In this document: positions 8,439 through 34,354 of the stretch, piece after piece
Numbering within the stretch: the first letter of the stretch is position 1
How the letters are laid out: every line of letters begins with the position of its first letter
NCBI GenBank assembly: GCA_024274695.1
Contig: JAJSAI010000026.1
Location: forward strand, 1-35,827
Reading direction: 5' to 3'
DNA from: an archaeon
Lineage (GTDB): Archaea; B1Sed10-29; JAJSAI01
DNA: 35,827 nt
Program-made: the position numbers and the translations under genes
The notes under the pieces: generated by a model
The model's database searches: none
What the model was told of the DNA's origin: nothing
What the model saw: the letters and a program-made list of their open reading frames with translations, nothing else

Positions 8439-8474
8439 CCGGAGAAGAAGGCCTAAAAATCAGTTGCCGTGCTC

Positions 8475-9710
8475 TCAATCCCTCTTTTTAGACGCTTTTT
8501 TCAGCCCGCTTATCCGCACCTTCTTTATGTGTCTTTTGTCAGCATCTTTTACCAGGAATGTCAGCCCATTCTCAGAATACTTCTCGCCCTTTTTCGGTAT
8601 CGTACCGAACTTTTCTAGCAGGAACCCTCCGAGCGTCTCGTACTCCTCGCTCTTGAGGTCCAAGCCCAGTTTCTCGTTAACCTCCTCCAGGTTCGCGTCC
8701 CCCCTTACTATCGCAGTGTTTTTACCGGTCCTGCGGATGCTGGACTCCACTTTCTCCGTCTCGTCATAAATTTCTCCGAAGACCTCCTCCAGAACGTCTT
8801 CCAGCGTGACAATTCCCCGGTAGTTCCCGTACTCGTCAAGCACTATAGCCATGTGCATTCTCTTGTCCTGGAACTCCCTCAGGAGCCTGTCAAGGGTTAT
8901 GCCCTCTGGAACGAACAGCGGAGGGTCGGCGATTTCCCCAGCGCGAGCCTTTCTGTTCGCCCTCATCGCCTTTTTCAAGTGGGCTATCCCAATAACGTTT
9001 TCAGGAATTTCCCTGTAAACAGGGATCCTGGTGAATCCTGTGTCCGAGAACAGTTTTAACAGGTCTTTTAAGGATGTTTTTGCCTCGGTCATGACCACCT
9101 GGTTCTTGGGTATCATGATGTCTTCTGCCGTGATATCATCAAGTCTGAAGATGCTGTGTATCATCTGCTTCTCATGCTTTTCTATTGCTCCCTCCTCTGC
9201 TCCTATGCTGATCATCATCTCAAGCTCGTCTTCGGTCAGCTCCGCGTCCTCCCCTCGTATCATCTTTCCGACCATCCTCTCAAAAACTACTATGAAAGGG
9301 TAGAACACGTACATTGTGACAAGGACAGGTACCGCGGTCCTGAGCGCGAACTTTTCCGACCTGCTGAGCGCGATTGACTTAGGGGTCACTTCCCCGAACG
9401 TCAGGATAAGGAACGTCATTACACCAGTGGCTATGCCCACTCCAAGAGAACCGAAGGCAGAGATTGCGGCACCCGCGGCCATGGACGAAGCGCCTATGTT
9501 CACAAGATTGTTGCCAAAGAGGATGGTTATGATCGTCCTACGCGGGTTCTGCTTCAGTTTCCTTAGGGCCCTGGCTCCAGGCTCGTCGTTCTTGACCAGC
9601 ACCTCTACCCTCGCGTTGCTAAGCTTGGTTATGGCCGTTTCGGCCCCCGAGTACATTGCTGACAATCCTATTAAAACGAGTAACGCCGAGAGAAGTATCA
9701 CGATCTCCAT
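8475..9710 (-). CDS. CNNM/CorB-HlyC family transporter (DUF21 + tandem CBS + CorC domain)
   Basis: SAMYSGAETA, TILFGNNLVN, FGEVTPKSIA, GFTRIPVY, MAIVLDEYG..GIVTLEDVLEEVFGEIYDE, YETLGG; start moved to ATG 9710. Confidence 0.93.
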   Translation of the reverse strand: MEIVILLSALLVLIGLSAMYSGAETAITKLSNARVEVLVKNDEPGARALRKLKQNPRRTIITILFGNNLVNIGASSMAAGAAISAFGSLGVGIATGVMTFLILTFGEVTPKSIALSRSEKFALRTAVPVLVTMYVFYPFIVVFERMVGKMIRGEDAELTEDELEMMISIGAEEGAIEKHEKQMIHSIFRLDDITAEDIMIPKNQVVMTEAKTSLKDLLKLFSDTGFTRIPVYREIPENVIGIAHLKKAMRANRKARAGEIADPPLFVPEGITLDRLLREFQDKRMHMAIVLDEYGNYRGIVTLEDVLEEVFGEIYDETEKVESSIRRTGKNTAIVRGDANLEEVNEKLGLDLKSEEYETLGGFLLEKFGTIPKKGEKYSENGLTFLVKDADKRHIKKVRISGLKKASKKRD

Positions 9711-9835
9711 ACCACTTCCCTTTTGATGATAATACACAACACCCTCTTTTAAATGGTTTCTGGAGGTATTCCTGTTCTCCCGCACGCCTCGCTCGTGGGG
9801 AAACTTTTAAGGCACTGGGTTGCCTAAACAAGGTC

Positions 9836-10252
9836 ATGAAGCTCTCGCGCCAGTCAGAACACCTGATAGTCTCCACACTCCTTGGGATACTTCTCTCTCT
9901 TTTATTCGGCCACAACCTGGCAGAAGACTTTCTGATTGTTGTAGCGTGCGTTTTCGGAGGCCTGTTCCCTGACTTTGACCAGAAGCTCGGGTTCGGGCAC
10001 AGGAATCCTATCTTTCATTCGTTCCTTATCCCTACAATAGTGGGGATTGCCCTCCCTAAGATCATCGTTGTTAGAGCTTTCACCCTCGGGTACGGGGCTC
10101 ACATGATCACGGACCTGGACAACCCTAAGCAGACCTGGAGGTACATAAAACAAACAACAGGAACCGCACTGCTCTGGGTTTCGATGATAATAGTGTTAAT
10201 GCTCTTCTTTGACATCTCCTTTTACGAGATCCTTAGGGTTTTAGGGGCATGA
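9836..10252 (+). CDS. Membrane-bound metal-dependent hydrolase (YdjM-like)
   Basis: N-terminal His, GGLFPDFD, GHRNPIFHS, GYGAHMITD; start moved to ATG 9836 downstream of a TATA-like CTTTTAAG. Confidence 0.82.
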   Translation: MKLSRQSEHLIVSTLLGILLSLLFGHNLAEDFLIVVACVFGGLFPDFDQKLGFGHRNPIFHSFLIPTIVGIALPKIIVVRAFTLGYGAHMITDLDNPKQTWRYIKQTTGTALLWVSMIIVLMLFFDISFYEILRVLGA

Positions 10253-11922
10253 GGTTTTTTGACTAAGTACATCCAAGACCAGCGCGCTTTGCCACTCGTT
10301 TTCTTCATATACTCCTCGAGACTGATTTCTTTTTTGGTCTCTGGGTCTGGAAAACCGAAGCGCTCGAACTCGAATCCCATGCGAGTAAAAAACTTGAGCG
10401 ATTCAGGGCTTAGCATCATCGCCTCTGCCCTGAGTCCCTTGAATCCTTTCGCCCTGGCAAGGTCAAACGAGTACTCCACAAGCCTTCTCCCGAATCCTTT
10501 TCCTTTCTCTGCAGAGAACAGCCATTCCATGGTGAGCGTCCCGTCCTCTTCCGGCACGAGGACGGCTCCCGCGACTGGTTCAGAATTCTTGAGCAGTACT
10601 AAATCAAACTCACTTTCTTCCTCATGGTCTAGGAAAACTTTTTCAGGATACTCTTCATAGGGGGTGTCCCTGATGGCTTTTTTCCATAAGCCTACTAGGC
10701 TTTTCCGGCCTCTGGCGGGTGAGATGTGCCATGACCGATGTTTATCTCTTCTTTCGCGTTCCAGCACCATCCTCTTTTTCAGGAACTCTTTAGGGCATTC
10801 TCCACCTGTTCCGAACACTCTCAGCGCTGGGCATACGTCACAAAACCCGATAAAGGCACAGTCCTTGCAAGAGCTTTTAGGCCCTGCCTCCATTATCCTC
10901 TTCTCAAGCTCAGGAGAGGGATTGTTCCCTATTAGATAGTCGCAGGTTGTCCTTTCAAACGGAGGATAGATAACCTTTTTCAGTCCCTCTGCCCCAGGGC
11001 ACTTGAGTATGCTAAAATCAACTAATTTTCCCGGGTCAAGTCCTCTTTCCATGATTTTTCTGACCAGTTCAGGATAAATGTCCCACCATTCGCCTTCAGG
11101 GATCACGCGGTCCTGCCCGTATCCTGGGACAGCATCCACTCTCTCAGGCCTTACTATCACTCTGTCAGAAAAGCCTTTGACCTCCTGTTCCAGCATGTCC
11201 AGCAATCCTGAGTACTCGTGCAAGTTATTCCTGTCAAGATTTGACCTGATGACAAGAAGGCCGCTGGAACTGTAAAGGTAGTGGAGCATATTGCTCCATA
11301 TTCTCCAGAAGGTCCCTTTACCGCCTTTCAAGAACCTTCTCTTGTCATGCACTTCAGGAGGCCCGTCCAAGGTTATTTGGACCTTCCGTAGCCAGGGGGC
11401 ACGGGCAACAAAATCTTTTGACAAAAGGTAGCCATTAGTCACGAGCGATCCTGTGAAGAACGTTCTTTTGTTCTCCTTGTTCAGGAGGCTCATGAACTTT
11501 AGGATGTTTTCCCTTTCGAGCAGGGGCTCTCCTCCAAAGAGGGACACGTGGAAAAATTTTTCGTTTCCTGCCGCGGTCAGCACATCATGCTTTAGTTTAC
11601 TCCAGTCTATGCTCAGGCGTCTTTTACATCGCTCAAAACAGTACGGGCACTCGAAATTGCAGTCAAGCGTGACCGCTACCTTTAAGCTGGCTGGTGCTGT
11701 CTTGCCCGGATTATGGGCTTTCCTTCCAAGAATGTTGACTGCCTTTTCAAGGTCCTTATCAGAAAAGCCTGTCTCTAGCTCTACCAGCGCACCGCTGTGA
11801 GACGATCCGAGGATAAACCCCCTGTCAGAAGGAAAGTAAAAGGAGAGGGGAATTGGTTTAACCGCTTTTTCAATCCTTTTCGCATCTGCTTCCGCACTCA
11901 GGTTTTCTGCATGCTGCTGCAT
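10222..11922 (-). CDS. Radical SAM/SPASM peptide maturase-like protein fused to a C-terminal GNAT acetyltransferase domain
   Basis: TLDCNFECPYCFE (CxxxCxxC), FGGEPLL, TNGYLL, QITLDGPPEVHDKRR, Cys-rich C...C...CKDC.....C..CP...C region, then GNAT motif A (KGKGFGRRLVEY) and FFTRMGFE. Confidence 0.88.
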   Translation of the reverse strand: MQQHAENLSAEADAKRIEKAVKPIPLSFYFPSDRGFILGSSHSGALVELETGFSDKDLEKAVNILGRKAHNPGKTAPASLKVAVTLDCNFECPYCFERCKRRLSIDWSKLKHDVLTAAGNEKFFHVSLFGGEPLLERENILKFMSLLNKENKRTFFTGSLVTNGYLLSKDFVARAPWLRKVQITLDGPPEVHDKRRFLKGGKGTFWRIWSNMLHYLYSSSGLLVIRSNLDRNNLHEYSGLLDMLEQEVKGFSDRVIVRPERVDAVPGYGQDRVIPEGEWWDIYPELVRKIMERGLDPGKLVDFSILKCPGAEGLKKVIYPPFERTTCDYLIGNNPSPELEKRIMEAGPKSSCKDCAFIGFCDVCPALRVFGTGGECPKEFLKKRMVLERERRDKHRSWHISPARGRKSLVGLWKKAIRDTPYEEYPEKVFLDHEEESEFDLVLLKNSEPVAGAVLVPEEDGTLTMEWLFSAEKGKGFGRRLVEYSFDLARAKGFKGLRAEAMMLSPESLKFFTRMGFEFERFGFPDPETKKEISLEEYMKKTSGKARWSWMYLVKKPHAPKTLRIS

Positions 11923-11989
11923 CAACGGTCATCCTCTTGGCTGAAGGTGGTATTATTACGACAAGCTTTTTCTCTGACGCGTGTTTCAT
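11870..11989 (-). CDS. Putative RiPP precursor peptide, 39 aa: MKHASEKKLVVIIPPSAKRMTVDAAACRKPECGSRCEKD
   Basis: Hand-translated, not in ORF track; GGGGAG SD 6 nt upstream of ATG, TATA-like TTTTATAT near 12026-12033, three Cys confined to the C-terminal third, directly upstream of and overlapping the rSAM gene. Confidence 0.65.
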   Translation of the reverse strand: MKHASEKKLVVIIPPSAKRMTVDAAACRKPECGSRCEKD

Positions 11990-12037
11990 TAACATCTCCC
12001 CTTAAGTTATCTTGAGTGAAGAGTAATATAAAAATTG

Positions 12038-13840
12038 TCATTCAGGCTTAGTTCTTTTACGTTTCTTCCTGCTCTTCTGTTTTTTGTAGGAATCTTCTTT
12101 GAGCAAGCCAAGGCTTTCCAGGACCCTCTTGCCCAGAGCCATGTCCCGCGACCCGCTTGCGATCTCCCTGAGATAGTGTTCCATGTGCTTGTTTCTCGCG
12201 AGAGCCAGCTTTTCTTTTCCTTTCATTGCGACCCTGATGTACTCTCCCATCTTCTCTCCGGCCAAGGACTCGGGTATCACCACAATGTCTGCCCCCGCGT
12301 CATACAACTCTATCACATCATGGGGCGTGTGGGCCCTGGCAAAGAATATGACCTTTTTGTTCTTCTTCTTGACCTCTTTTATCAGCGTTTTAGTGGTCTC
12401 CACGTCAGGGATTGTGGATATTATCATTTTCGCCTTGTCCAGGAAGAGCCTTTCCCTCACTTCTTCATTGTACGCGTCCCCGAAGATAACGTTGTACCCC
12501 CTTTCTTTCAGCGACTCCACGACATCCGGGTTGTAGTCTACTATCAGGAGTTTTCTCTTGCCTATCCTGGGGAGGATTCTGTTTCCTGACCTATCGCATC
12601 CTATGAGCACCACGTGATCCTTCCACTCTTTCTTAGGCTCTTCTCTGATAACCCTCCTGCTGAAGAACTCTCTGGTTATCTTCCGCTCAATCCTGTGGAA
12701 CAGGTAGTACACCTTGTTATTGTACCTGAAGGAGTAAGGGGTCAGCAGGATGGAGAAGATTATCACTATCGTCACCACGGAGAACAGTTCGGGAGTGAAC
12801 ACGCCCAGGTTGAGCCCGAGCATCGCGATTATGAAAGAGAACTCGCTCACCTGGCCCAGGGCCATGCCCGTGGTGACGGACACTCTGGCCCCGTATCCCA
12901 GCAGGAAGTATATCATTGCGCTGATCAGGGGCTTTGCTATTACTACTATGGCGAGCAGGGCGCCCAGGAGGATGAGATAGTTTTCCGGGGAGATTGATGT
13001 AAGCTGCATTCCCAGGGAGACGAAGAAGAGGGTTGCGAAAAAGTCCCTTAGAGACTTTATCTTCCCAAGGATCTCCATGTTGCAAGTGAAAGCCGACAAA
13101 GACATTCCTGCGATGAACGCCCCTATCGCTATAGAGAAGTGCAGTTGCGTGGCTATCCACATGAACGCAAAGCAAGTGGATACCGCGGTCAGGAACAAGA
13201 GTTCCTGGGACCGTACAGCAAAGTTGAGGACTTTTGGGACAACAAACTTGTTCGCCAAGAACGCTATCACTATCAGCCAAACCCCGCTGTACAAGATTCC
13301 CACGAACGCGTCCGCCGACATGAGCTCAACCCTCTCGCTTATGAAGGGCAGAACGAGGATGACTATGATGTCCTGTACTATCAGGATCCCTGTCAGGAGC
13401 CTGCCGTGCAGTGTGTCAAGCGCTCGGTTGTCTGACAGTATTTTTATGATGATCATGGTGGAGCTGAACGACACGATAAGGCCTATGAACACTGACGCCA
13501 TCTGAGGCAGGCCCAGAAGCCTGCTGACTGTGAAGCCCAGCAGGAACGTTAGGGCCACCTGAATGACCCCTGCCAGGGTGCTCACGAACCCCATCCCCCT
13601 GAGCTTGTCAAGACTTATCTCCACACCCGCCCCGAACAGCAGAAAAGCAATGCCCAGCTCTGAAAGGGCTCTTATCTCCTCGCTCCCGGTTATCAGCCCG
13701 AGGCCGAGGGGCCCGAGGGTAATGCCTGCTACAACGTACGCCAGCAGCAGAGGCTGCCGTAGTTTTTTCGCCACGAACCCCAGGAGCGTGGCTGTTACTA
13801 CCATCAGACCAATGTCAGAAAGGATCGCGTACCCGCTCAT
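12038..13840 (-). CDS. Cation:proton antiporter (CPA2/KefB-like) with C-terminal TrkA-N domain
   Basis: LRQPLLLAYVVAGITLGP, SELGIAFLLF, SFSSTMIIIKIL, GILIVQD, LRDFFATLFFVSLG, QVSEFSFII, VIFGDA, GADIVVIPE. Confidence 0.93.
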   Translation of the reverse strand: MSGYAILSDIGLMVVTATLLGFVAKKLRQPLLLAYVVAGITLGPLGLGLITGSEEIRALSELGIAFLLFGAGVEISLDKLRGMGFVSTLAGVIQVALTFLLGFTVSRLLGLPQMASVFIGLIVSFSSTMIIIKILSDNRALDTLHGRLLTGILIVQDIIVILVLPFISERVELMSADAFVGILYSGVWLIVIAFLANKFVVPKVLNFAVRSQELLFLTAVSTCFAFMWIATQLHFSIAIGAFIAGMSLSAFTCNMEILGKIKSLRDFFATLFFVSLGMQLTSISPENYLILLGALLAIVVIAKPLISAMIYFLLGYGARVSVTTGMALGQVSEFSFIIAMLGLNLGVFTPELFSVVTIVIIFSILLTPYSFRYNNKVYYLFHRIERKITREFFSRRVIREEPKKEWKDHVVLIGCDRSGNRILPRIGKRKLLIVDYNPDVVESLKERGYNVIFGDAYNEEVRERLFLDKAKMIISTIPDVETTKTLIKEVKKKNKKVIFFARAHTPHDVIELYDAGADIVVIPESLAGEKMGEYIRVAMKGKEKLALARNKHMEHYLREIASGSRDMALGKRVLESLGLLKEDSYKKQKSRKKRKRTKPE

Positions 13841-16431: not shown

Positions 16432-17580
16432 TTAATTAACTTCCTCCTCTAAAAAAGTAGACACCTTAAATAATGCTTCATCTAGATCGTTCAGTTCTTG
16501 TTCCCCAATGTACATATTTAGCGGTAACAGGACAACTCTTTTATGAATTTCTTCTGCTTCAGGAAATCTTTTATTTTGCCATGAGGATGAAAAGAGAGGG
16601 TGTAAATGATAAGGGATGTACCAAGGTTGTATTGGGATTCCTTCCATATTTAGAGCCTTGATGATGAAGTTTTTTAAAGACGGTTTTACTTTTAGATAAA
16701 TAGGTAAAAGATGCACGGCAAAACGAGTACATTGTTTGGGCACTATAAATTGGTTTGAATATTTTTTAAAAATGTTTCTAATTTTTCTACCTGTATTCTT
16801 TCTGTATTTTATTATTTCTTCCATTCTTTCTAGGTGCAGGATGCCCAATAAGGCCTGAAATTCACTGATTCTGAAATTGTAACCTTTTATTACAGTATTT
16901 CCACGAACTTCTCCGTAGTTTGTTATAACCTCTATCTTTCTAGCGTACTCTGTATTATCTGTTATAATTGCTCCTCCTTCCCCAGTTGATAATATTTTGC
17001 CTTCATAAGTGCTAAAGCAAGAGATATCCCCAAAAGTCCCTACAAGTTTTCCATGTACTTTATTGCCAACAACCTGAGAGATGTCCTCTATTAATGGGAT
17101 TTCAAACTCTTCTTTAATTTTGGTGAACTCTACGATCCTTTCAGAGGGGTAGAATAAATGGACGGGTAGAATTGCTTTATTTTTGTTTTTCTTTGACAAT
17201 ATATTCCTAGTTTTTTTGGGATCGAGAAAGGGGTCTTCTAGACCTGAGACATCTGAAAATATTACTTTTTTGTTAACGTTAACAATCGCGTTTGGAGTAG
17301 AATGAGTTAACGGAGATGTTATGATCTCAGATGATTTTATAGATTCAAGCGCTACCATCAGGGCTGCTACTCCAGAGGAGGTTGCTTTAGCATACTTAAC
17401 ATCAAAGAATGAACGTAATAGTTCTTCATATTCTTTAGTTTTTTTACCGTGTTTAGAACTAAATCTTCTAGTTTTTAAGAGTTCAATGAACTTTTTTTCA
17501 TCTGTCTCTTGAAGATAAGTCATAAAAATTGGGAAGGCTTTCTTTCTAACAGGTTCTCCTCCGAAGATTGCCAATTTCAT
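16432..17580 (-). CDS. DegT/DnrJ/EryC1/StrS family PLP-dependent sugar aminotransferase
   Basis: KLAIFGGEPVR N-terminus, TSSGVAAL, AILPVHL, LIEDISQ, CFSTYEGKILSTGEGG (PLP Lys), GYNFRISEFQA. Confidence 0.92.
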   Translation of the reverse strand: MKLAIFGGEPVRKKAFPIFMTYLQETDEKKFIELLKTRRFSSKHGKKTKEYEELLRSFFDVKYAKATSSGVAALMVALESIKSSEIITSPLTHSTPNAIVNVNKKVIFSDVSGLEDPFLDPKKTRNILSKKNKNKAILPVHLFYPSERIVEFTKIKEEFEIPLIEDISQVVGNKVHGKLVGTFGDISCFSTYEGKILSTGEGGAIITDNTEYARKIEVITNYGEVRGNTVIKGYNFRISEFQALLGILHLERMEEIIKYRKNTGRKIRNIFKKYSNQFIVPKQCTRFAVHLLPIYLKVKPSLKNFIIKALNMEGIPIQPWYIPYHLHPLFSSSWQNKRFPEAEEIHKRVVLLPLNMYIGEQELNDLDEALFKVSTFLEEEVN

Positions 17581-18395
17581 AATATTTCCTCCATCGCCTC
17601 GTGAATAACTTGAAGTTCCTTATAGCTTGGTAAAACGGTTTGAGTCGTACTTTTTAAGAGGGAGCAGTGTGCTTGGGTTGTTAGATAAAACCATCTGTTA
17701 GTTTTGGAACCATTTATATTTAAGGAATCCAGTATCATTTCTTTTTTATTGCCTTTTTTAGATTTGTATTCAAATAAGATTTGATCGTTATCCTTGTGTT
17801 TTAAAACAATTTTAATATCTTTATTATCTTTAGTCGTAAAAGCATATTCTTTAATATATTTCTCTTCTTTTTTGTGATGGAATGTAACACCTTCCGGAAA
17901 AATATAACAGAGAACATCAACAGGATGACAGATGATATCCCTAATAGTTGTATCTTCATAAAACATTTTGGTAGTGAAGTATGTGATCCTAATTTTTTGT
18001 GGAATATTTTCTTTTATTTTTTGCACAATCGGAAGTAGTCTCCAATTATAGTTTCCATAAATTTTTTTGGCAATATCTTTTGAAATGTTTAGTAACTCAT
18101 GTCTATTCGAGCATACTGGTTTTTCGCATAAGATCACTTTTGCACTCCTTCCATAAGTTTCCAGAATTTTTTTGTGAGTTGAAGTAGGAGTTGCAATGAT
18201 AAGCAAGTCTGGTTTCTTTATGTGGTTGTTTAGGGGTTGCTTAAAATTTATTTTTTTAAACTCCTCCAACTTTTGCGTATCTATATCTGCAAGTTCTATC
18301 TCTTTAATTTCAGGGTTTAAAAGCGCTGCTAAAAAATGTATTTTTCCGATGTTTCCTATACCTATTATCTTTACGCTTGATTTCTTATCCAACAT
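17577..18395 (-). CDS. Gfo/Idh/MocA family NAD(P)-dependent oxidoreductase
   Basis: IIGIGNIGKIH Rossmann motif, IATPTSTH, ILCEKP, D..CHPVD. Confidence 0.88.
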   Translation of the reverse strand: MLDKKSSVKIIGIGNIGKIHFLAALLNPEIKEIELADIDTQKLEEFKKINFKQPLNNHIKKPDLLIIATPTSTHKKILETYGRSAKVILCEKPVCSNRHELLNISKDIAKKIYGNYNWRLLPIVQKIKENIPQKIRITYFTTKMFYEDTTIRDIICHPVDVLCYIFPEGVTFHHKKEEKYIKEYAFTTKDNKDIKIVLKHKDNDQILFEYKSKKGNKKEMILDSLNINGSKTNRWFYLTTQAHCSLLKSTTQTVLPSYKELQVIHEAMEEIL

Positions 18396-19372
18396 AATGG
18401 GTCCTTTCCGTCATCTTTAATCGCGGCTCTGCATCCTCCGTAACACATGTAAAAGTATGGGCACCCCTCGCATGTTTTAGGGTGTTGATTTCTCCATTGA
18501 ATGAAAATAGGGTGATTTTGGTAAATTTTTTCTACGATGTTATACTTGTCAAGCAAAAAGTTATCCTTGTCTTCAGAGTAGGGGGCAGTAGTGCATGGGA
18601 CCATATATCCGTTTACCGTAATACTGGCAGAAATGAACCCTGCGCCACATCCTAAGACGCAAGAAGATGATTCCCTTTTAGGAGGGGTTGTTAACAAAAA
18701 TTCAAAAGGACTTTTTAATATTTTTATATTTCTTGATTTTCTTTCTTTTATTAATTGAAATAATACTTTTTTGTATTCTTCTTTAGTGATTTGAAATTTT
18801 TTCTGAAATTTATTTTTAGGGATAAAACGCATTATTCTGAAAGAAGGAACCCCTCTTTCTTCTAGAAAATCTAGTAGTCTAAATACTTCTCCGTTTTGTA
18901 TAACTTTCTTTGTAAGGATAGTTCCAACTACAAATTTTTTATTTTTTTCAATTAGCTTTTCTATTCCTGAAAGTGTAAGATCAAAGCTTCCTTTTCCTCT
19001 AAAATATTCATGTGTTTCTTTTAATCCATCTAAACTTATTTGGATTCTATCAAAATGAAGTAAGGAATCTATCCTCGAATTATCAATGAGTGTTCCATTT
19101 GTAGTGATGCTTGCTATCCCCTTTAATTGATGTATCTTCTTGACAATTTTATCAAGATCGTGCCTTAGTAAAGGTTCGCCTCCAGATAAATGAACTAAAT
19201 TTCCTGGTTCAACAGTCTTTTCTAAAATTTTTATTATTTCAGCAGTTGAAAGTTCTTTATTGTTTTCTTTCTTTATTTCATGAAAGTAAAAATAGCAATG
19301 TTTACATTTTAAATTACATCTTGAAGTAATATCTATAAACCACATGACAGGTCTAGGCAAAATCAAATACAT
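18371..19372 (-). CDS. Radical SAM/SPASM enzyme (PqqE/MftC/NirJ-like), no fused RRE
   Basis: ITSRCNLKCKHCY, SGGEPLLR, TTNGTLI, QISLDG..ETH..FRG.GSF, SPASM CGAG....I...G...PC...CEGC.....CYGGCRA...DPLC. Confidence 0.93.
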   Translation of the reverse strand: MYLILPRPVMWFIDITSRCNLKCKHCYFYFHEIKKENNKELSTAEIIKILEKTVEPGNLVHLSGGEPLLRHDLDKIVKKIHQLKGIASITTNGTLIDNSRIDSLLHFDRIQISLDGLKETHEYFRGKGSFDLTLSGIEKLIEKNKKFVVGTILTKKVIQNGEVFRLLDFLEERGVPSFRIMRFIPKNKFQKKFQITKEEYKKVLFQLIKERKSRNIKILKSPFEFLLTTPPKRESSSCVLGCGAGFISASITVNGYMVPCTTAPYSEDKDNFLLDKYNIVEKIYQNHPIFIQWRNQHPKTCEGCPYFYMCYGGCRAAIKDDGKDPLCWIRNQA

Positions 19373-19376
19373 TAAG

Positions 19377-19412
19377 TTTAAATATTGGTTATTTCATCTA
19401 TTTAAATGGTGA
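19377..19412. promoter_or_regulatory. Divergent archaeal-type promoters (two TTTAAATA boxes) plus GGTGA SD for the peptide
   Basis: TTTAAATA on + at 19377-19384 (peptide) and on - at 19399-19406 (about 26 nt before rSAM ATG); GGTGA at 19408-19412. Confidence 0.6.
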
Positions 19413-19417
19413 TTATT

Positions 19418-19507
19418 ATGAATAAAAAAAAGATTTGGGAAACACCTACAATAGAAGAAATAGATTTAACATTATATTGTTGTACCCCTACTGATGATGA
19501 AAAATGA
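19418..19507 (+). CDS. Putative RiPP precursor peptide, 29 aa: MNKKKIWETPTIEEIDLTLYCCTPTDDEK
   Basis: Hand-translated, not in ORF track; GGTGA SD; WxxPxI leader motif resembling RRE-binding motifs of PqqA and lasso leaders; sits in the middle of a cluster with PqqD, rSAM and peptidase; in-frame upstream ATG at 19406. Confidence 0.8.
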   Translation: MNKKKIWETPTIEEIDLTLYCCTPTDDEK

Positions 19508-19540
19508 ATACTTTTAATAACTTTTAAATCATTTTTGTTT

Positions 19541-20641
19541 TTAAAGAGAATATATTTTTTGATACTCTTTTACTGTCCTTTGAATATCAAATTGAGAGAG
19601 TACCCTTTTTCGTGCACCTTTTTCTATTTTTTGTTTAATTTTTATATTTTTTTCTAAAAAAAGAATATTTTTAATTATCTCTTTGGGTTTCCCAGGATGG
19701 ACTAGAACCCCAGACTTGAAATGAGTGATAATCTCTGGAATTCCACCAACTTTTGATGCAATTACTGCTTTTTCTGATGCCATGCCTTCTATTACTGAAA
19801 TGCCAAAAGGTTCTTCCCAAAGTGAAGGGACTAAAGCATAGTCTGAGATATTATAAAAATAAGGGATGTACTTGTAATCAAAGGGTCCGAAAATTATTCG
19901 GTCTAATAATGGATCATTAGCCCATTTTATAGATGAGAGAACTTTTTGTGTTTTATGAGCACTCTCGTTTCCGGTCAAAATAAGCACGAACTCTTGTGGG
20001 AGTTGTTTTAATGTTTTGATTAGAATGTCTACTCCCTTTTCTGGAGAAATTCTAGATGTACAGAGGAGAATTCTTTTTTCCAAGAAATCACTATTTAACA
20101 TTTTTGAAATTTTTTCAAAACATTCAAATTTATCTCGCTTTTTGAAAAGAGAAGTATCTATTCCATTATAGATTACTATAATTTTTTCAGAAGGGATAAT
20201 CTTTTTTAATTCAATTTTTATATACTCGCTTGGAACGACTATCTTTTTTAAGCATTGAGATTCATTTAATAATTTGAATACTGGTTTTAATTCAAGGTAG
20301 ACGGGAGTGTGATGGGAATAAATAATCTCATAGTTTTTGCTCCCAAATGTAGTGATTATAAAAAACGCAAAATCAATGGTGTGTATTTGAATTATATCCG
20401 GTGATATCTCATTGATAATTTCGCTAATAATTTTTTTCGTTTTCTGATAATCTAATGGTCCCCTTGATGGGAGGGGCAAATGATAACACTTCCCGGTTTT
20501 TTGAATGGTTGAAACGTTATCATCACAGAAGGCGATAAAATGCTTGTTTTTTTTGTCAGAGTTTGTAAGATTGTAAAGAAGAGTTTCGACGCCACCTATC
20601 GTGTTTGCATAGTCTCTAGTTAAATGTAAAACTTTTTTCAT
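19541..20641 (-). CDS. Glycosyltransferase family 4 (GT-B)
   Basis: IGGVET, VIYNGID, SRISPEKGVD, PSLWEEPFGISVIEGMAS, SKVGGIPEII. Confidence 0.93.
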   Translation of the reverse strand: MKKVLHLTRDYANTIGGVETLLYNLTNSDKKNKHFIAFCDDNVSTIQKTGKCYHLPLPSRGPLDYQKTKKIISEIINEISPDIIQIHTIDFAFFIITTFGSKNYEIIYSHHTPVYLELKPVFKLLNESQCLKKIVVPSEYIKIELKKIIPSEKIIVIYNGIDTSLFKKRDKFECFEKISKMLNSDFLEKRILLCTSRISPEKGVDILIKTLKQLPQEFVLILTGNESAHKTQKVLSSIKWANDPLLDRIIFGPFDYKYIPYFYNISDYALVPSLWEEPFGISVIEGMASEKAVIASKVGGIPEIITHFKSGVLVHPGKPKEIIKNILFLEKNIKIKQKIEKGARKRVLSQFDIQRTVKEYQKIYSL

Positions 20642-20642
20642 A

Positions 20643-21590
20643 TTAAAAAAATTCTTTTATTTTTCTTTTAAATAATTTATATTCTTTATTTATTCTTTTG
20701 TAATATTTTATTTTTACTTTTTTTATTTTTTGTTTGTAAAATTGATAATTTTCTAAAGTATCTGTTATTTTTTCTTTCCAACAGCAAATATTATTTATTT
20801 TTTTTACTAATAATTCTTTTGGAACATAATCAGGAATTCCTCCTATATCACTTCCTAGAACTGGTATTTCATTTACAATTGATTCTATACATACACGAGG
20901 AGAAGGATCTTCCCATAATGATGGAACTAGAGTTATTTTGGTTTTTTCGTAAATGAATTTTATTTGATTGTATTGTACAGGTTCCAAAATTTTGACATTT
21001 TCAAAAGGGAATTTTGGAATATTTTGTGTGGTGCTTTTTTTTATTATTAAAAAATTTTTGTCTGGATTATTTTTTATCAGTTTATAGACGATTTCTGCGC
21101 CTTTTTTTAGGGAGGGGTTAATAAATGTTATCCATTTTTGCATGCTATCATCTTTTTTGTTATTAATTACCTCTTTTGAAATAATCATTGGTTCCAGGAG
21201 AATACTCTCTTTACTTATGTATGAATATTTGTTTTGTGTGTACTTTGAATTAAATACGATTACGTCTGCTGAGTTATTTATATCATTGACTCGGGTGAAG
21301 AAAAAAACAGGAATTTTTTGCATTTTTCCATATTCGATCGCATATTTTGCCCACGCTAGTTGAGTGAAAATGATACTAGGTTTTATTTTTTTTAACATTT
21401 TTTTGATATTACTTGGGTGAATTATTTCATAAATTTTGATATTATCAATTTTTTCAGGTCTTTTCGGATGAATAAATGTAAGTACAGAACAATCATATCC
21501 ATCTTTTTTTAACTTTCTTAGGAGAGTATGTGCACTTATTTCAGAACTTCCTATTCTTGGTAAGTATTGTTCAGAAATGAAAAGTATCAT
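20643..21590 (-). CDS. Glycosyltransferase family 4 (GT-B), second copy
   Basis: ILFISEQYLPRIGSSE, FINPSLKKG, LVPSLWEDPSPRVCIES, SDIGGIPD; start moved to ATG 21590. Confidence 0.88.
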   Translation of the reverse strand: MILFISEQYLPRIGSSEISAHTLLRKLKKDGYDCSVLTFIHPKRPEKIDNIKIYEIIHPSNIKKMLKKIKPSIIFTQLAWAKYAIEYGKMQKIPVFFFTRVNDINNSADVIVFNSKYTQNKYSYISKESILLEPMIISKEVINNKKDDSMQKWITFINPSLKKGAEIVYKLIKNNPDKNFLIIKKSTTQNIPKFPFENVKILEPVQYNQIKFIYEKTKITLVPSLWEDPSPRVCIESIVNEIPVLGSDIGGIPDYVPKELLVKKINNICCWKEKITDTLENYQFYKQKIKKVKIKYYKRINKEYKLFKRKIKEFF

Positions 21591-21665
21591 CAATAATAAA
21601 AAGGAAAATAATACATAAATAAAAGTATATGTTTTTATAAAAATTTCAAAGGAGGTGCGAAGATA

Positions 21666-21917
21666 ATGCCTTGGAAACCAAAAGTAAACGAAAACATACA
21701 AATAAAAAAAACGGAAGAGGGTGATATTCTTATAGATATTCTTTCAGGTAAATTATTTAAATTAAATAATACAGGTTCAGATATTCTTCATTTATGTAAT
21801 GGAAAAAATGAAATAAATATGATTGTCTCTCAACTTCAGAAAAATTATGATAAAGTAAAAGAAGAAGAAGTAGTATCTTATCTAGAGAATCTAAAAAGGA
21901 TAGGGCTTGTAATATGA
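21666..21917 (+). CDS. PqqD family peptide chaperone / RiPP recognition element (RRE)
   Basis: 83 aa, three beta strands then LNNTGSDILHLCNG...IVSQLQKNY...V.SYLENL...GLV; GGAGGTG SD at 21651-21657. Confidence 0.9.
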   Translation: MPWKPKVNENIQIKKTEEGDILIDILSGKLFKLNNTGSDILHLCNGKNEINMIVSQLQKNYDKVKEEEVVSYLENLKRIGLVI

Positions 21918-22243
21918 GCTTTACTCAAGATGAAATGCGTTTGATTCGAAAAGCAATGGATCTATTTGAAGTGGTTTACTTTAAAGCGGTAGGTAACAGT
22001 ATGTTTCCTACTATCAAAGAAAATCAAATTGTAAAAGTAAAAAAAGTAGAATTAGATAAAATCAAAATTGGAGATATTTTAGTTTTTGAAGTTTTTGGAA
22101 GTATTATAGCACATAGGGTTGTACGTATAGAACATAAAAAATTCGGCCCTATTTTTATAACTAAAGAAGATAATTTTCAAAATTATCCATCTTCGAAATA
22201 TTTAATAGCAAAACCCGAAGATGTAATTGGGATAATATCTTAG
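21914..22243 (+). CDS. Soluble S24/S26 family serine peptidase (candidate leader peptidase)
   Basis: GNSMFPTI, IKIGDILVF, IAHRVV, FITKEDN; no TM helix; ATGA-coupled to the PqqD gene. Confidence 0.85.
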   Translation: MSFTQDEMRLIRKAMDLFEVVYFKAVGNSMFPTIKENQIVKVKKVELDKIKIGDILVFEVFGSIIAHRVVRIEHKKFGPIFITKEDNFQNYPSSKYLIAKPEDVIGIIS

Positions 22244-22253
22244 AATATTTAAA

Positions 22254-23996
22254 TCATTTTTTTTGAATTACATAATTGTTGATAATTAGATAATCCAATC
22301 CCATAGTATAAAAGTCTCTAATTGCATCTTTTAACGTTCTTACAATTGTTTTTCCCGCTATATTAAATGAAGTGTTCAATACAGCAGGAATTCCTGTTTC
22401 GTTTTCGAAGTTCTTTATTAATCTGTAGAACTTTTCATTATCTTTTGAATGTAAGATCTGTGGACGTGTTGTCTGATCTACATGCACAACCGCAGGGATT
22501 ATGTCGGGTGAGGATACAGACACAGTAAAGGTCATATATTTTAAAGCATGAAGTTTTTTGGCAGGGACTTCTAAGATTTTTAATGCTTTTTCTTCTAATA
22601 TTGTTGGGGCTAGTGGTCTCCACAATTCTCTTCCTTTTATTAGATTTACTCTTTTTTTGTTGCATGAAAGAGAAGGATTTGCTAAGATACTTCTGTTTCC
22701 CAAGGCTCGCGGTCCAACTTCCATTCTCCCTTGAAACCATCCTACTATTCTGTCTTGGCATAGGAGTTCTGCAGCATATCTTTCAGGATCTGGGACGTTC
22801 TCATAGGATATCCTTATTTTTTTGAGATAACTTTCGATTTTTTCATCGTGTTCTTCTTTTCCCAGGTAAGGAGTGAATGGATATGTATCTATCTCCTTTC
22901 CTGTTAACATTTCATATCCTATAATTGCAGAACCAAGAGCTGTACCATAATCTCCTGCAGTTGGAGGGGCGAAAAAGGCTATTTCGGGATACTTTCTCGT
23001 TAGGTAACCATTCAATCTGCAATTAAGAAAGAGGCCTCCTCCTAATGCAATATTTTCTATGTCCTCTTTTTCTTTTTTGAACTTTTGGATCAAGCTTTCT
23101 ATAATTCCTGAGATATATTCCTCAGTTATTTTTTGTACCGCCCAAGCTAGATTTTTTTGATGAACGGTAGGTTCGGCACAATTCTTAGAAATAGGTATTT
23201 TAGATGATAAAACAGCTAGAATTTGATTTGTTAAGTGATGTTTTGTAATTCTAGTAAAATCGAAAGTATCTTCTTTGGAGACGATCATTTCTTTGAATTT
23301 ATGGTAGATTTGAGACTCAGAGCCGTATGCAGAAAGACCCATCGTCTTTCCTTCGGATTTGAGCCATCCAAGACCAAGATATCCGGTAACATAGTGGTAT
23401 AGCATGGCAGGAGATTGCGGGTATTTTACGCTTAATATCTTTTCGAGGAATCCGTTTTCATATTTCCATGCTGTAAGTGACTCAAATTCTCCCCTCCAGT
23501 CTGAGATTATGACAAGTCCCTTTCTGAAGGGAGCAATCTTTGAGACTGCCGCAGCATGTGAGAGGTGATGGGGTACAGCTATAACCTGAGGTGGAGAGAA
23601 TGTATGGTTTTTGATCCACTCTTTCAGGGTCTTCAAACTGGAGACGTATCTTCTGTGTTCTTGTGAGAGGCGTCTAGTTAAAGTTATCAGTATCCTGTTT
23701 ATGTCTTTTGACCCTTCAATGAGGAATGGTTCCGCTTCTGAGACAACTCTCCGATTGAAAAGAGTTACATCCCAGGGTATAGTTATGGCTTCTACTTCAT
23801 CTAGGATAGTACCTGTTGTGGAGAGACAGAATGTTATGGACCCTGAGGGAAATGTTCTTTCGCTTCCTTTGATTCTTGTATGTCTCTCTTCTTCTTCCAT
23901 TGCTAATATTTTTCCGTTTTTTGATATGCAGGCTGAAGGATCATGGGTTCCCATGGACGGTAATGTTGGATTAATTCCTAATATCACTCCTTTCAT
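22254..23996 (-). CDS. NodU/CmcH/TobZ family O-carbamoyltransferase
   Basis: HDPSAC, EEERHTRIK, HHLSHAA, EGKTMGLSAYG, GGLFLNC, GRMEVGPRALGNRSILA, RELWRPLAP, VHVDQTTRPQ, LNTSFN. Confidence 0.95.
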   Translation of the reverse strand: MKGVILGINPTLPSMGTHDPSACISKNGKILAMEEEERHTRIKGSERTFPSGSITFCLSTTGTILDEVEAITIPWDVTLFNRRVVSEAEPFLIEGSKDINRILITLTRRLSQEHRRYVSSLKTLKEWIKNHTFSPPQVIAVPHHLSHAAAVSKIAPFRKGLVIISDWRGEFESLTAWKYENGFLEKILSVKYPQSPAMLYHYVTGYLGLGWLKSEGKTMGLSAYGSESQIYHKFKEMIVSKEDTFDFTRITKHHLTNQILAVLSSKIPISKNCAEPTVHQKNLAWAVQKITEEYISGIIESLIQKFKKEKEDIENIALGGGLFLNCRLNGYLTRKYPEIAFFAPPTAGDYGTALGSAIIGYEMLTGKEIDTYPFTPYLGKEEHDEKIESYLKKIRISYENVPDPERYAAELLCQDRIVGWFQGRMEVGPRALGNRSILANPSLSCNKKRVNLIKGRELWRPLAPTILEEKALKILEVPAKKLHALKYMTFTVSVSSPDIIPAVVHVDQTTRPQILHSKDNEKFYRLIKNFENETGIPAVLNTSFNIAGKTIVRTLKDAIRDFYTMGLDYLIINNYVIQKK

Positions 23997-33286: not shown

Positions 33287-34354
33287 ATGGAGGGTGCTAA
33301 AGAGGCGATGTTCTATGCTCCCCTGGAAGAGGGTGCTGTAAAGTGCATGCTGTGCCGGAGGGGATGCGTAATCCCTGATGGCGGCAGGGGATTCTGCAGG
33401 GTCAGAAAGAACGTTGGCGGTAAACTGTACTCGTTGAACTACGGGCGCGCGATAGGGATGGCAGTGGACCCAATAGAAAAGAAGCCGTTCTACCACTTCT
33501 GGCCAGGGTCTCAAGCGTTCTCTTTCGCGACCGTGGGATGCAACTTCAGGTGCCTGCACTGCCAGAACTGGGATATCTCTCAGGCAAGCCCAGAAGACTT
33601 TCCCACGCCGTACACTCCTCCGGAAGAGCTCGTGAGAGAAGCAGAACGCTTAGGCACCCGGATAATCGCGTACACGTACACCGAGCCAACAATCTTCTAC
33701 GAGTACGCTCGGGACACCGGCGTGCTGGCCAGGGAGAAAGGAATGCTGAACGTTTTCGTTACCAACGGGTACACCGGAAAGGAGGCCATAGATGACGCGG
33801 CCAAAAGTTTTCTGGACGCTGCCAGAATAGACCTTAAGGGAGGCGAGGAACACTACCTTAAAATAGCAGGGGGAGTGGTGCTGGACAGGGTGCTTGACAC
33901 CATCAGGGACTACTACCGGACCGGAATGCACGTGGAGATAATAACCCTCGTGATCCCCGGAGACAATGACACCAGAGAGTTCGTCGCCAGAATGGCTGGA
34001 TTCCTGAGGACAGAACTCTCGGACGAGGTCCCCTGGCACTTCACGAGATTCTACCCAGCCTACAAGATGACTGACGTTCCTCCCACGAGCGTTGAAACCC
34101 TTGAAAAAATGCATGACTGGGCGAAAGAAGAGGGCATGAAGTACGTATACATCGGCAACGTGCCCGGGCACGAGTACAACAACACGTACTGCCCGAAGTG
34201 CGGGGAAAAAGTAATAGAACGGGACGGGTTCACTGTCACGGGAGTAGCCCTCTCAGGATCTCCTGGAAAGTACAAGTGCCCCTCGTGTGGGACCAGAATA
34301 CCTATAGTGGGCGAGGCAAAACCCACGTCCCTCAGCAGGCCTGAGCTTTTTTAG
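33287..34354 (+). CDS. amrS: AmmeMemoRadiSam system radical SAM enzyme
   Basis: VKCMLCRRGC.I..G.RGFCRVRKN, DPIEKKPFYHF.PG, GCNFRCLHCQNW.ISQ, AYTYTEP, TNGY, IDLKG, YVYIGNV, TYCPKCG...IER. Confidence 0.93.
   Translation: MEGAKEAMFYAPLEEGAVKCMLCRRGCVIPDGGRGFCRVRKNVGGKLYSLNYGRAIGMAVDPIEKKPFYHFWPGSQAFSFATVGCNFRCLHCQNWDISQASPEDFPTPYTPPEELVREAERLGTRIIAYTYTEPTIFYEYARDTGVLAREKGMLNVFVTNGYTGKEAIDDAAKSFLDAARIDLKGGEEHYLKIAGGVVLDRVLDTIRDYYRTGMHVEIITLVIPGDNDTREFVARMAGFLRTELSDEVPWHFTRFYPAYKMTDVPPTSVETLEKMHDWAKEEGMKYVYIGNVPGHEYNNTYCPKCGEKVIERDGFTVTGVALSGSPGKYKCPSCGTRIPIVGEAKPTSLSRPELF

Follow-up and report, generated by a model that had tools for sequence, protein, structure and literature searches.

A putative two-gene RiPP-like cassette in an archaeal genome pairs a three-cysteine peptide with a radical SAM–SPASM-like–GNAT fusion protein

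Ranthipeptides and sactipeptides differ in the carbon to which the cysteine sulfur is joined by a thioether: the β or γ carbon in the former and the α carbon in the latter. The RRE, an N-terminal winged-helix domain that binds the leader, consists of three strands and three helices. The closest described maturases, namely those of the PapB, TIGR04463, Clo7bot, CefB and geopeptide families, combine a radical SAM domain with a seven-cysteine SPASM region and have a small cysteine-containing precursor encoded just upstream, as does the locus presented here; the latter differs in its three-cysteine core, a shorter N-terminal domain, a C-terminal GNAT domain and an archaeal host with a genome of <1 Mb. 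CteB, the thermocellin sactipeptide synthase (PDB codes: 5WHY and 5WGG), resembles our enzyme in its N-terminal domain, barrel and SPASM region at 17–20% identity, but has no GNAT domain. PapB makes Cys-X3-Asp/Glu thioethers (PMC9413430). The closest GNAT precedent in RiPPs is provided by the selidamides: GNAT maturases (KspN, PhaN and NpuN) acylate a Lys or Orn side-chain of a ring-containing ribosomal peptide, and the acyl groups are C10–C16 (PMC8784127). There, LanM-type enzymes form lanthionine rings and the GNAT stands alone, whereas at our locus the ring-forming enzyme would be of the radical SAM–SPASM type and the GNAT is fused to it. Elp3 likewise carries radical SAM and GNAT domains, in that order, on a single polypeptide, but lacks both a SPASM region and a precursor peptide. 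Among the archaea, the CrpC/CrpA system of Methanococcus voltae is described as a SPASM radical SAM enzyme that introduces ranthionines into a Cys-rich neighbour (PMC13692751); this substrate is a protein, whereas the putative substrate here is a peptide, and neither 'GNAT' nor 'acetyltransferase' occurs in that text. No description of an rSAM–SPASM–GNAT fusion was found in the literature searched.

The locus lies in a window (the whole stretch of DNA that was analysed) of 35,827 nt from an archaeal genome of ~0.8 Mb, and comprises the following features.

12025..12034, minus strand: TATA-like A/T-rich box (TTTTTATATT), ~30 nt 5′ of the small-ORF ATG (read from the sequence)
11995..12000, minus strand: GGGGAG, purine-rich, 5 nt 5′ of the ATG at 11989 (read from the sequence)
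11870..11989, minus strand: small ORF, putative precursor peptide of 39 aa plus stop, or 41 aa from the ATG at 11995 (sequence; similarity to a G002 peptide)
11932..11936, minus strand: GAGGA inside the small ORF, 6 nt before the TTG at 11925 and 9 nt before the ATG at 11922 (read from the sequence)
11873..11911, minus strand: putative core CRKPECGSRCEKD, with three Cys, one Cys-X3-Glu and one Cys-X2-Asp (sequence; pattern match at 11892–11911)
10222..11922, minus strand: 566-aa ORF with a strand-rich N-terminal domain, radical SAM, SPASM-like and GNAT parts (stop codon at 10222–10224)
11707..11853, minus strand: short RRE-like domain, residues 24–72, three strands and one helix (AF2 model; VIA alignments)
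11035..11697, minus strand: radical SAM core, residues 76–296 (Pfam PF04055 and PF13353; model; anSME Z 25.2)
10729..11025, minus strand: SPASM-like region, residues 300–398, seven Cys (66-sequence alignment; structural alignment)
10663..10728, minus strand: linker, residues 399–420 (AF2 model confidence)
10255..10662, minus strand: GNAT acyltransferase domain, residues 421–556, KGKGFG at the acyl-CoA loop position (Pfam PF00583)
10234..12095, no strand: stretch without counterpart in the syntenic region of G001, a genome of the same genus (blastn blocks; ORF map)

Counted from its first ATG, the small ORF spans 11870..11995 and encodes 41 aa; the ATG at 11989 gives the 39-aa version, MKHASEKKLVVIIPPSAKRMTVDAAACRKPECGSRCEKD, which contains three Cys, as against six in SCIFF precursors, and ends (11989→11870) in ...AAACRKPECGSRCEKD. 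The initial annotation had reported this three-cysteine ORF alongside a radical SAM/GNAT protein, and both are present, all on the minus strand. It had also placed the ORF directly before the enzyme gene: the ORF does start 5′ of it, but its 3′-terminal 50 coding nt, or 53 counting the stop codon, overlap the first 17 codons of the enzyme in another frame, and the putative core coding region falls wholly within these codons. That the core-coding part lies inside the frame of the enzyme runs against a RiPP reading. The leader would comprise ~26 residues and be followed by the core CRKPECGSRCEKD, if the boundary between them is correctly placed. The A/T-rich box at 12025..12034 is a candidate promoter element for the small ORF, and GGGGAG at 11995..12000 a possible ribosome-binding site; GAGGA at 11932..11936 may fulfil the latter role for the enzyme gene.

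Two stretches of the peptide correspond to the Cys-Xn-Asp/Glu core motif of ranthipeptides: CRKPE (C-X3-E), which is shared with the G002 peptide, and CEKD (C-X2-D), which is found in the window peptide. At least three Cys within the last 14 residues are present in just one of the 139 window ORFs of 35–80 aa, namely the small ORF; across the genome, the same criterion selects 61 of 3870 small ORFs. No NCBIfam family matched the small ORF, and this includes the NHLP and Nif11 leader models. In this respect, it differs from the selidamides, whose clusters combine such a leader with a lanthionine synthetase; no family of the latter kind is among the matches listed for the 35 window ORFs scanned.

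Relative to G001, the cassette is a 1.86-kb indel, as seen from blastn blocks and the ORF map, which carries both the small ORF and the enzyme gene; at the same place in G001, a Kef-type antiporter gene directly abuts a small membrane-protein gene. The flanking repeats are only short two-copy matches, none of which frames the indel, and the GC content (48.7% for the cassette versus 51.4% for the genome) is not telling. No protease or exporter adjoins the cassette.

The large ORF spans 10222..11925 on the minus strand when read from a TTG; the ATG at 11922 gives 566 aa, and these two are the sole ATG, GTG or TTG codons among the first 110 codons of the enzyme. The claim of the initial annotation that radical SAM and GNAT domains reside in one protein is upheld, both scoring above their Pfam cut-offs. 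Radical_SAM (PF04055) matches residues 85–212, numbered from the TTG, with 33.6 bits (cut-off 29.5), and Fer4_12 (PF13353) scores 37.6 bits (cut-off 22); the CxxxCxxC cluster motif is CNFECPYC, at residues 88–95 (encoded by 11638–11661), and the pLDDT of the core in the AF2 model is mostly 91–98, with one block at 84. Acetyltransf_1 (PF00583) matches residues 422–518, again numbered from the TTG, with 33.1 bits (cut-off 20.7), covering positions 13–116 of the 116 in the profile. The acyl-CoA loop motif of GNAT proteins takes the form Q/R-x-x-G-x-G/A. The best PDB sequence match of the GNAT part is SACOL1063 (E 1.7e-4), and the 50 matches listed in a fold search with a GNAT-only model are almost all annotated as acetyl- or acyltransferases of the GNAT type, although the pLDDT of that model (59) restricts the result to fold class. 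In the AF2 model of the enzyme, pLDDT falls below 50 across residues 400–450, which comprise the linker and the first third of the GNAT domain.

The cysteine-rich, SPASM-like region that had also been proposed stands as far as the cysteines are concerned: C308, C327, C352, C355, C361, C364 and C376 occupy columns with ≥90% conservation among 66 aligned rSAM–SPASM proteins, and VIA aligns the region structurally to anSME and CteB as far as residue 394–398. It was not, however, matched by the Pfam SPASM model (PF13186) at E ≤ 1, as is also true of many genuine relatives. The motif itself departs from the norm: a Phe stands where a Gly usually precedes the second SPASM Cys, an insert follows C361, and the CX2CX5CX3C block is changed. 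At the N-terminus, the AF2 model has strands at residues 27–31, 35–40 and 45–50, followed by a helix at 55–70 (pLDDT 83–93), and VIA alignments with CteB and TigE begin at model residues 24 and 19, respectively. CteB has a full RRE, whereas this domain has one helix at the equivalent position.

For the enzyme as a whole, the top VIA match is anSME (Z 25.2), whereas the top Foldseek match is CteB (E 5e-15; VIA Z 24.9, 352 residues aligned). The latter alignment spans model residues 24–394, and so the N-terminal domain, the barrel and the SPASM region all align to CteB. The best NCBIfam matches are maturases of Cys peptides, namely TIGR04463, Clo7bot, CefB, geopeptide and PapB, and these families are also the best for the enzyme of G002; with 106.2, 100.2, 93.9 and 68 bits against curated cut-offs of 525, 600, 600 and 340 for TIGR04463, Clo7bot, CefB and PapB, respectively (i.e. 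68–106 bits against 340–600), the scores are far below cut-off, and the coverage extends only over about residues 72–258. The SCIFF maturase model, TIGR03974, gives 49.2 bits, where its cut-off is 425.

No close full-length relative of the enzyme was found among 5.8 billion proteins, and in a search of proteins near to it in length only the window's own protein exceeded 38% identity. An exhaustive search added only P0121, a fragment of 135 aa that is 87% identical over the GNAT part, and a GNAT-only search among shorter proteins returned P0121 alone. This protein begins with Met at the position of enzyme residue 423; its contig is just 637 nt long, so the fragment is probably cut off. A metagenome scan produced 18 further relatives with identities of up to 32%. 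Among the 80 relatives taken from the genome collection, mostly bacterial, 22 have an upstream Cys peptide, whereas the opposite strand provides only 4 such cases in the same 80; in that collection, the phylum and the class are represented by 31 genomes each. Linkage to a GNAT is not a general property of the clade, since a home-built GNAT model matched 0 of the 80 genome-collection relatives and 1 of the 18 from metagenomes.

The same parts are found unfused in G002, a genome of the same order, as three adjacent genes: a stand-alone GNAT (PF00583, 53.6 bits), then a 58-aa ORF, then an rSAM–SPASM gene. The 58-aa ORF contains ...ETDCRKPEGDWCGTEEDNC..., and the motif CRKPE...CG[ST]...C is common to it and the window peptide; BLASTP relates the two with an E of 0.002, through similarity of the leaders and this motif. 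When the small ORFs of the window genome are ranked by their similarity to the G002 peptide, that of the window comes 3rd, rather than 1st, of 6833, and 5 of 5000 shuffled sequences reach its score. Back-translation of the motif gave a search pattern that hit 15 of 401 archaeal genomes, whereas its reverse, used as a control, hit 3 of the 401; an in-frame gap was present in only 4 of the 15 matches; in just two of the 401, the window genome (G000) and G002, does the motif fall in a small ORF adjoining an rSAM gene. CRKPE matches in G189 and G061 were dismissed as chance, being in frames of 30–32 codons that overlap longer ORFs read in other frames. Only one locus besides the window has the motif. 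The TVDAAA-C junction, which the initial annotation had likened to clostridial junctions of the form T-[IV]-E-A-x-A-C, is not kept in the homologous G002 peptide, which reads IYETD-C. The GNAT domain of the window retrieves nothing from the G002 GNAT by BLASTP, and hhalign gives an E of 0.11, which is too weak to use; the two have a similar C-terminal ...W-x-x-L-x-K tail. In the tree, the enzyme of the window and that of G002 do not come out as sisters, being separated by a branch with a support of 97, although both are on long branches.

Two further loci bring a GNAT together with an rSAM–SPASM enzyme, making four with the window and G002. L127, the best of the 18 metagenome relatives, adjoins a divergent GNAT gene (54.9 bits) and has three precursors with NHLP leaders, all with Cys cores, one of which reads ...GRKCGSQC...; two of the three were scored against NCBIfam, giving 60.2 and 63.5 bits (NHLP-leader cut-off 50.9). 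The other is of the P0261 type: P0261 (G001), P0262 (G027) and P0264–P0267 are rSAM–SPASM–GNAT fusions with the same domain order as the window protein. P0261 and P0262, whose source archaea share a class with that of the window and for which the DNA was examined, are preceded by 10-Cys ORFs with CDC repeats that end 16 nt upstream. These fusions belong to a FibroRumin/PapB-like clade that is different from that of the window protein (with an SH-aLRT of 100 on either side). Their identity with the latter is 27%, in the radical SAM part only, and their 10-Cys CDC-repeat precursors are unlike the three-Cys peptide. One of them is named 'GNAT family N-acetyltransferase [archaeon]' by NCBI, and no member is characterized. 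With upstream Cys peptides recurring in G002 (CRKPE), in G001 and G027 (CDC repeats) and in 22 of the 80 relatives, and with GNAT linkage in four loci, the proposal of the initial annotation that a Cys precursor is paired with an RRE-like/rSAM/SPASM/GNAT maturase is supported at the level of the genes.

We favour, as probable though well short of certain, a two-gene RiPP-like system that introduces thioether crosslinks and an N-acyl group, perhaps on a conserved Lys. The cassette is probably genuine and of a known peptide-modifying kind, because in relatives its three parts are encoded individually. The observations comprise the domains, fold, conserved peptide motif and recurring linkage of peptide, rSAM–SPASM enzyme and GNAT; expression is presumed, and each of the chemical steps that follow is proposed from the families involved. 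The small ORF would be the precursor and the large ORF its maturase. The leader would be held by the short, strand-rich N-terminal domain, as judged from the related families, whereupon the radical SAM cluster, bound by C88, C92 and C95, would cleave SAM to generate a 5′-deoxyadenosyl radical that abstracts hydrogen from the acceptor residue. The SPASM clusters may then help to couple the Cys sulfur to the acceptor carbon, giving up to three thioether rings, after which the fused GNAT would acylate an amine of the same peptide from acyl-CoA. The +42 Da shift named in the initial annotation presupposes an acetyl group, unlike the C10–C16 groups of the selidamide precedent. The conserved CRKPE (Cys-X3-Glu) would fit Cys-to-Glu ranthionine chemistry of the PapB type, and the best candidate for acylation is presumably the conserved Lys within the Cys-X3-Glu ring.

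If the cassette is real but its GNAT does not tailor the product, the domain might confer self-protection by neutralizing the peptide, act on some other amine, or have a binding or scaffold function, and the crosslink may not be a thioether; this we regard as unlikely. The PDB matches of the domain are generic (SACOL1063, Naa80/Naa30 and IAA acetyltransferase), its first third is poorly modelled, and related SPASM enzymes in the fold list (anSME, SuiB and EpeE) differ in their chemistry. Yet the acyl-CoA loop sequence is kept and the Pfam cut-off is passed, the occurrence of the fusion in two clades and the adjacency in G002 and L127 point to a shared substrate, and it is Cys that defines the cores, as in the thioether families. 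It is quite improbable that the small ORF is instead a non-substrate, or an untranslated by-product of the 5′ region, and that the true target of the enzyme is a different peptide or a protein, as with anSME and CrpC: the recurrence of the CRKPE..CG..C motif and of the leader similarity in the G002 ORF at the same position, the confinement of this arrangement beside an rSAM gene to 2 of 401 genomes, and the joint carriage of ORF and enzyme by the indel all weigh against it, as compared with the 50-nt overlap with the enzyme start, the 61 of 3870 small ORFs that show the same cysteine pattern by chance, the protein-modifying nature of the top VIA match, anSME, and the archaeal SPASM enzyme that modifies a protein (PMC13692751).

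That the fusion arose artefactually, through an assembly error or frameshift joining two neighbouring genes, seems very improbable. The protein is known from one contig only, the junction at residues 400–450 is modelled with low confidence, the GNAT is a separate gene in G002 and L127, and P0121 starts with Met near the domain boundary; however, the frame is open over 1.7 kb with no rival long frame at the junction, P0121 is probably truncated by the end of its contig, and fusions of the same architecture occur in independent assemblies (P0261 in four sources, and P0262 and its 550-aa cluster-mate, P0263, from NCBI and ENA). Almost no credence can be given to an Elp3-like tRNA-modifying enzyme, which the domain order alone (radical SAM, then GNAT) would suggest: TIGR01211 matches only C10 (324 and 318 bits) and C20 of the genome and nothing at C21, where the locus lies, Elp3 is absent from the best 25 NCBIfam families of the enzyme, no Elp3 chain is among the fold matches listed, and both SPASM cysteines and an upstream Cys peptide are present. 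With a canonical Elp3 encoded elsewhere in the genome, this identity was rejected.

A bolder extension of the RiPP-like reading, which we consider distinctly unlikely in its entirety, is that GNAT-coupled radical SAM maturation constitutes a RiPP subclass of its own, in which one polypeptide would close a Cys-X3-Glu thioether ring and then attach a long acyl chain to the Lys of the ring. An ultra-small archaeon would thereby make a thioether lipopeptide from a two-gene cassette, possibly for host contact, and the coupling of GNAT to rSAM–SPASM would have arisen at least twice.

The radical SAM RiPP chemistry of the archaea is almost unexplored: the one thioether example found in the literature searched dates from 2026 and acts on a protein (PMC13692751). 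A maturase with its own acyltransferase, if this is what the fusion represents, would be a compact two-step catalyst for crosslinked, acylated peptides, and, at ~1.8 kb, the cassette is within direct reach of co-expression. The existence of both split (G002 and L127) and fused (window and P0261 type) forms is an argument for the two activities sharing one substrate. Finally, that a genome of ~0.8 Mb has retained or acquired the cassette suggests that the function of the peptide repays its cost.

Both ORFs of the cassette lie on the minus strand, near genes for PCNA, primase and GINS, in a window that is one entire contig (C21) of an archaeal genome of 825 kb and 32 contigs with a marker-gene completeness of 91%. 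Together with three putative signals, read from the sequence and presumed from it to have the roles suggested, they are arranged as follows:

12034-12025, minus strand: TATA-like A/T-rich box (putative)
5 nt ahead of the ATG at 11989, minus strand: GGGGAG (putative signal)
11995 (first ATG) or 11989 (second ATG) to the TGA at 11870-11872, minus strand: small ORF, reading MKHASEKKLVVIIPPSAKRMTVDAAACRKPECGSRCEKD
6-9 nt ahead of the enzyme start, minus strand: GAGGA (putative signal)
11925 (TTG) or 11922 (ATG) to 10222, minus strand: large ORF, 566 aa counted from the ATG

When the second ATG (11989) is taken as its start, the small ORF is the 39-aa peptide of the initial annotation. The claim that it directly precedes the enzyme holds for its beginning, which is upstream, but not for its end: the first 110 codons of the large ORF contain no ATG, GTG or TTG besides the TTG at 11925 and the ATG at 11922, and, therefore, codons 1-17 of the enzyme share their DNA, in a different frame, with the entire Cys-bearing part of the small ORF, its final 50 coding nt. 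An ATT at 11872-11874, in the frame of the enzyme, overlaps the TGA of the peptide (ATTGA). In the same-order genome G002 (L030, 6215-6233), the enzyme frame continues after the TAA TAA of the peptide, in the same frame, with 39 codons that lack a canonical start; the first ATG, GTG or TTG is just 5 codons ahead of CxxxCxxC, yet family models begin aligning at residue 4 of this frame. We speculate that both enzymes may rely on non-canonical starts linked to termination at the end of the peptide ORF.

The composition of the small ORF is unusual, albeit not unique: it alone of the 139 window ORFs of 35-80 aa has at least three Cys in its last 14 residues, a property of 61 of the 3870 small ORFs genome-wide. 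We regard the comparison with G002, which holds, out of 40 related genomes, the enzyme's closest relative (E 7.9e-17), as decisive sequence-level evidence that the small ORF is real. The G002 locus comprises:

Gene 1, minus strand: 172-aa GNAT (PF00583, 53.6 bits)
Gene 2, minus strand: 58-aa ORF, MGNLKKGDDKMMVLVENRINKIYETDCRKPEGDWCGTEEDNCVTLASPDDDDDEDEDY
Gene 3, minus strand: rSAM-SPASM gene

The window and G002 peptides align through leader and core, with CRKPE...CG[ST] common to both (BLASTP E-value 0.002); their local alignment score was matched by 5 of 5000 shuffles, and the small ORF ranks third in similarity to the G002 peptide among the 6833 small ORFs of its own genome. The back-translated motif matched 15 of 401 archaeal genomes, versus 3 of 401 with a reversed control, and only 4 of the 15 matches had an in-frame gap. 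Those in G189 and G061, in frames of 30-32 codons overlapped by longer ORFs in other frames, were set aside, leaving exactly the window and G002 among the 401 genomes, each match directly upstream of an rSAM-SPASM gene; because both peptides had been used to derive the motif, the search is a measure of rarity and not an independent discovery. Within the clade of the window enzyme, upstream Cys-rich ORFs are common: 22 of 80 loci have one on the same strand, versus 4 of 80 on the other strand, these loci not being independent (several are Collinsella). The upstream Cys peptide that had been proposed, therefore, recurs among relatives, in G002 with the CRKPE motif itself. In a DPANN-type archaeal MAG (L091, 2032-2205), a 57-aa frame ending ...SCYGKDGCPAGFTGN directly precedes the rSAM-SPASM gene, and may be another short Cys precursor.

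In the enzyme (Pfam residues counted from the TTG), Pfam recognizes Radical_SAM (33.6 bits; cut-off 29.5), Fer4_12 (37.6 bits; cut-off 22) and the GNAT family Acetyltransf_1 (33.1 bits; cut-off 20.7; residues 422-518). The Pfam SPASM model has no match; in an alignment with 65 relatives, conservation is at least 90% in the columns holding Cys 308, 327, 352, 355, 361, 364 and 376, and likewise in those of C88, C92 and C95. An AlphaFold2 model (mean pLDDT 81, pTM 0.71) predicts the following:

Residues 2-21: helix
Residues 27-70: three strands and one helix
Residues 78-292: barrel
Up to residue 398: Cys-rich region
Residues 400-450: linker, pLDDT <50
Residues 454-555: GNAT-like sheet and helices, pLDDT 58-85

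Foldseek ranks the sactipeptide synthase CteB first among the PDB matches to this model (E 5e-15). VIA-align gave Z 25.2 for anSME (model residues 76-396), 24.9 for CteB (352 residues aligned, 24-394), 22.6 for ChlB and 20.0 for TigE (19-393). The top NCBIfam families (TIGR04463, Clo7bot, CefB, geopeptide and PapB), all well below cut-off and matched over just residues 72-258 or so, are the identical set to that of the G002 enzyme (PapB, TIGR04463, CefB, Clo7bot and geopeptide). Identity with Elp3 was rejected: TIGR01211 matches a canonical Elp3 on contig C10 of the same genome, and nothing at the cassette locus. That Elp3 (C10:13758-15304; L020 and L021) is in two adjoining pieces (324 and 318 bits), the second containing one TGA; a frameshift, gene splitting or misassembly could account for this.

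Elsewhere in the window, 33287-34354 (plus strand) encodes an AmmeMemoRadiSam-system radical SAM enzyme (TIGR04337, 327.9 bits; cut-off 220). A sugar-modification cluster at 16432-23996 (minus strand) contains genes for a DegT-type aminotransferase, a GFO/IDH oxidoreductase, two GT1 glycosyltransferases, a carbamoyltransferase and an rSAM/SPASM protein (18371-19372; best match TIGR04133, 126.7 bits, under cut-off), the last probably not peptide-related.

The enzyme is isolated. Among 5.8 billion proteins, compared at similar length, the only match above 38% identity is the window protein itself, which alone of the 120 matches listed carries a GNAT family. Searched exhaustively, 1.84 billion representatives yielded 13,797 matches at E<=0.001, of which just two reach E<=1e-30: a double radical SAM protein of 688 aa, and P0121, a 135-aa fragment with 87% identity to residues 424-557, which is uninformative on the fusion because its contig is just 637 nt. 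With the GNAT part as the query, there was no match besides P0121. No description of an rSAM-SPASM-GNAT fusion was found in the literature searched, the supplementary tables of which might list some; one such fusion is named by NCBI merely 'GNAT family N-acetyltransferase'.

The proposed architecture does occur in relatives. The same-genus genome G001 encodes a 541-aa fusion, P0261, behind a 50-aa ORF with the end CSGCFCDCGSGECDCSCDCQICDCGF, and the same-class genome G027 a 551-aa fusion, P0262, behind a 69-aa ORF whose CDC repeats contain ten Cys; the two share 30% identity over 498 residues, including the GNAT. FibroRumin is the best NCBIfam family for both, with PapB second for P0261, and GNAT families occur in 5 of the 120 best relatives of P0261. 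A tree of 51 rSAM-SPASM sequences places the P0261/P0262 clade apart from the one that contains the window enzyme and its G002 relative, with an SH-aLRT of 100 for each side of the split; hence, the joining of a GNAT domain to an enzyme of this kind happened on two or more occasions. Within their clade, the window and G002 proteins each have a long branch, and the tree does not recover them as sisters. Of 18 metagenome relatives, the best (L127; 32% identity over residues 79-368) has an rSAM-SPASM gene (Clo7bot 259.8 and TIGR04463 207 bits, both under cut-off) that adjoins a divergently transcribed gene for a 289-aa GNAT protein (PF00583, 54.9 bits). On its other side are three precursor genes, all with a Cys core after a GG site (one being MGRKCGSQCQGYGRCHCQGQAN); the two precursors scored against NCBIfam both exceed the NHLP leader cut-off (60.2 and 63.5 versus 50.9 bits). 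A home-built GNAT model matched none of the 80 genome-collection loci and one of the 18 metagenome loci, and Pfam found a GNAT domain in none of eight unusually long genome-collection relatives, results that speak against a general GNAT link.

A second pair that is fused in one genome and split in another involves the PEP-utilizers mobile domain (PF00391): in G009 it is fused to an rSAM-SPASM protein (L018, 1679-3295; 66.9 bits), and on contig C30 of the window's own genome (L015, 2050-6391) a stand-alone 103-aa ORF (35.6 bits) lies between two radical SAM genes, whose 608- and 718-aa frames have long N-terminal extensions. A near-identical gene, resembling by eye a TrmB-type regulator, is found beside these rSAM genes (L015, 245-1165) and in G001 (L004, 2425-3081), where it adjoins the CDC-repeat peptide and P0261; the shared neighbourhood seems to carry a different rSAM cassette in each genome.

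In G001, a small membrane-protein gene directly follows the Kef-type antiporter gene, and window positions 10234-12095, the small ORF and the enzyme, have no counterpart in the syntenic region. The neighbouring CNNM/CorC transporter gene (8439-9835) is likewise absent there, a second indel beside the cassette. Neither flanking repeats nor a marked shift in composition was found for the cassette.

In the proposed mechanism, the 39-aa peptide would be held through its leader by the strand-rich N-terminal domain, its three Cys would enter thioether links formed by the radical SAM and SPASM clusters, and one of its amines would receive an acyl group that the GNAT domain takes from an acyl-CoA. Cys-X3-Glu is kept in both the window and G002 peptides; PapB crosslinks Cys-X3-Asp/Glu, with spacings of 0-6 residues tolerated (PMC9413430). 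Selidamide enzymes are maturases of the GNAT type that attach acyl groups to Lys or Orn side chains in RiPPs with rings; those rings are lanthionines, and the GNAT is a protein of its own (PMC8784127). Given that activity, the conserved Lys of CRKPE is a reasonable candidate for the acyl acceptor. Among the window ORFs examined, neither a protease nor an exporter gene adjoins the cassette and, hence, the product may remain intracellular or retain its leader. The same has been proposed for the products of SCIFF-type two-gene cassettes. Overall, we consider it fairly probable that the locus is a RiPP cassette of the rSAM-SPASM kind with a GNAT built into the enzyme.
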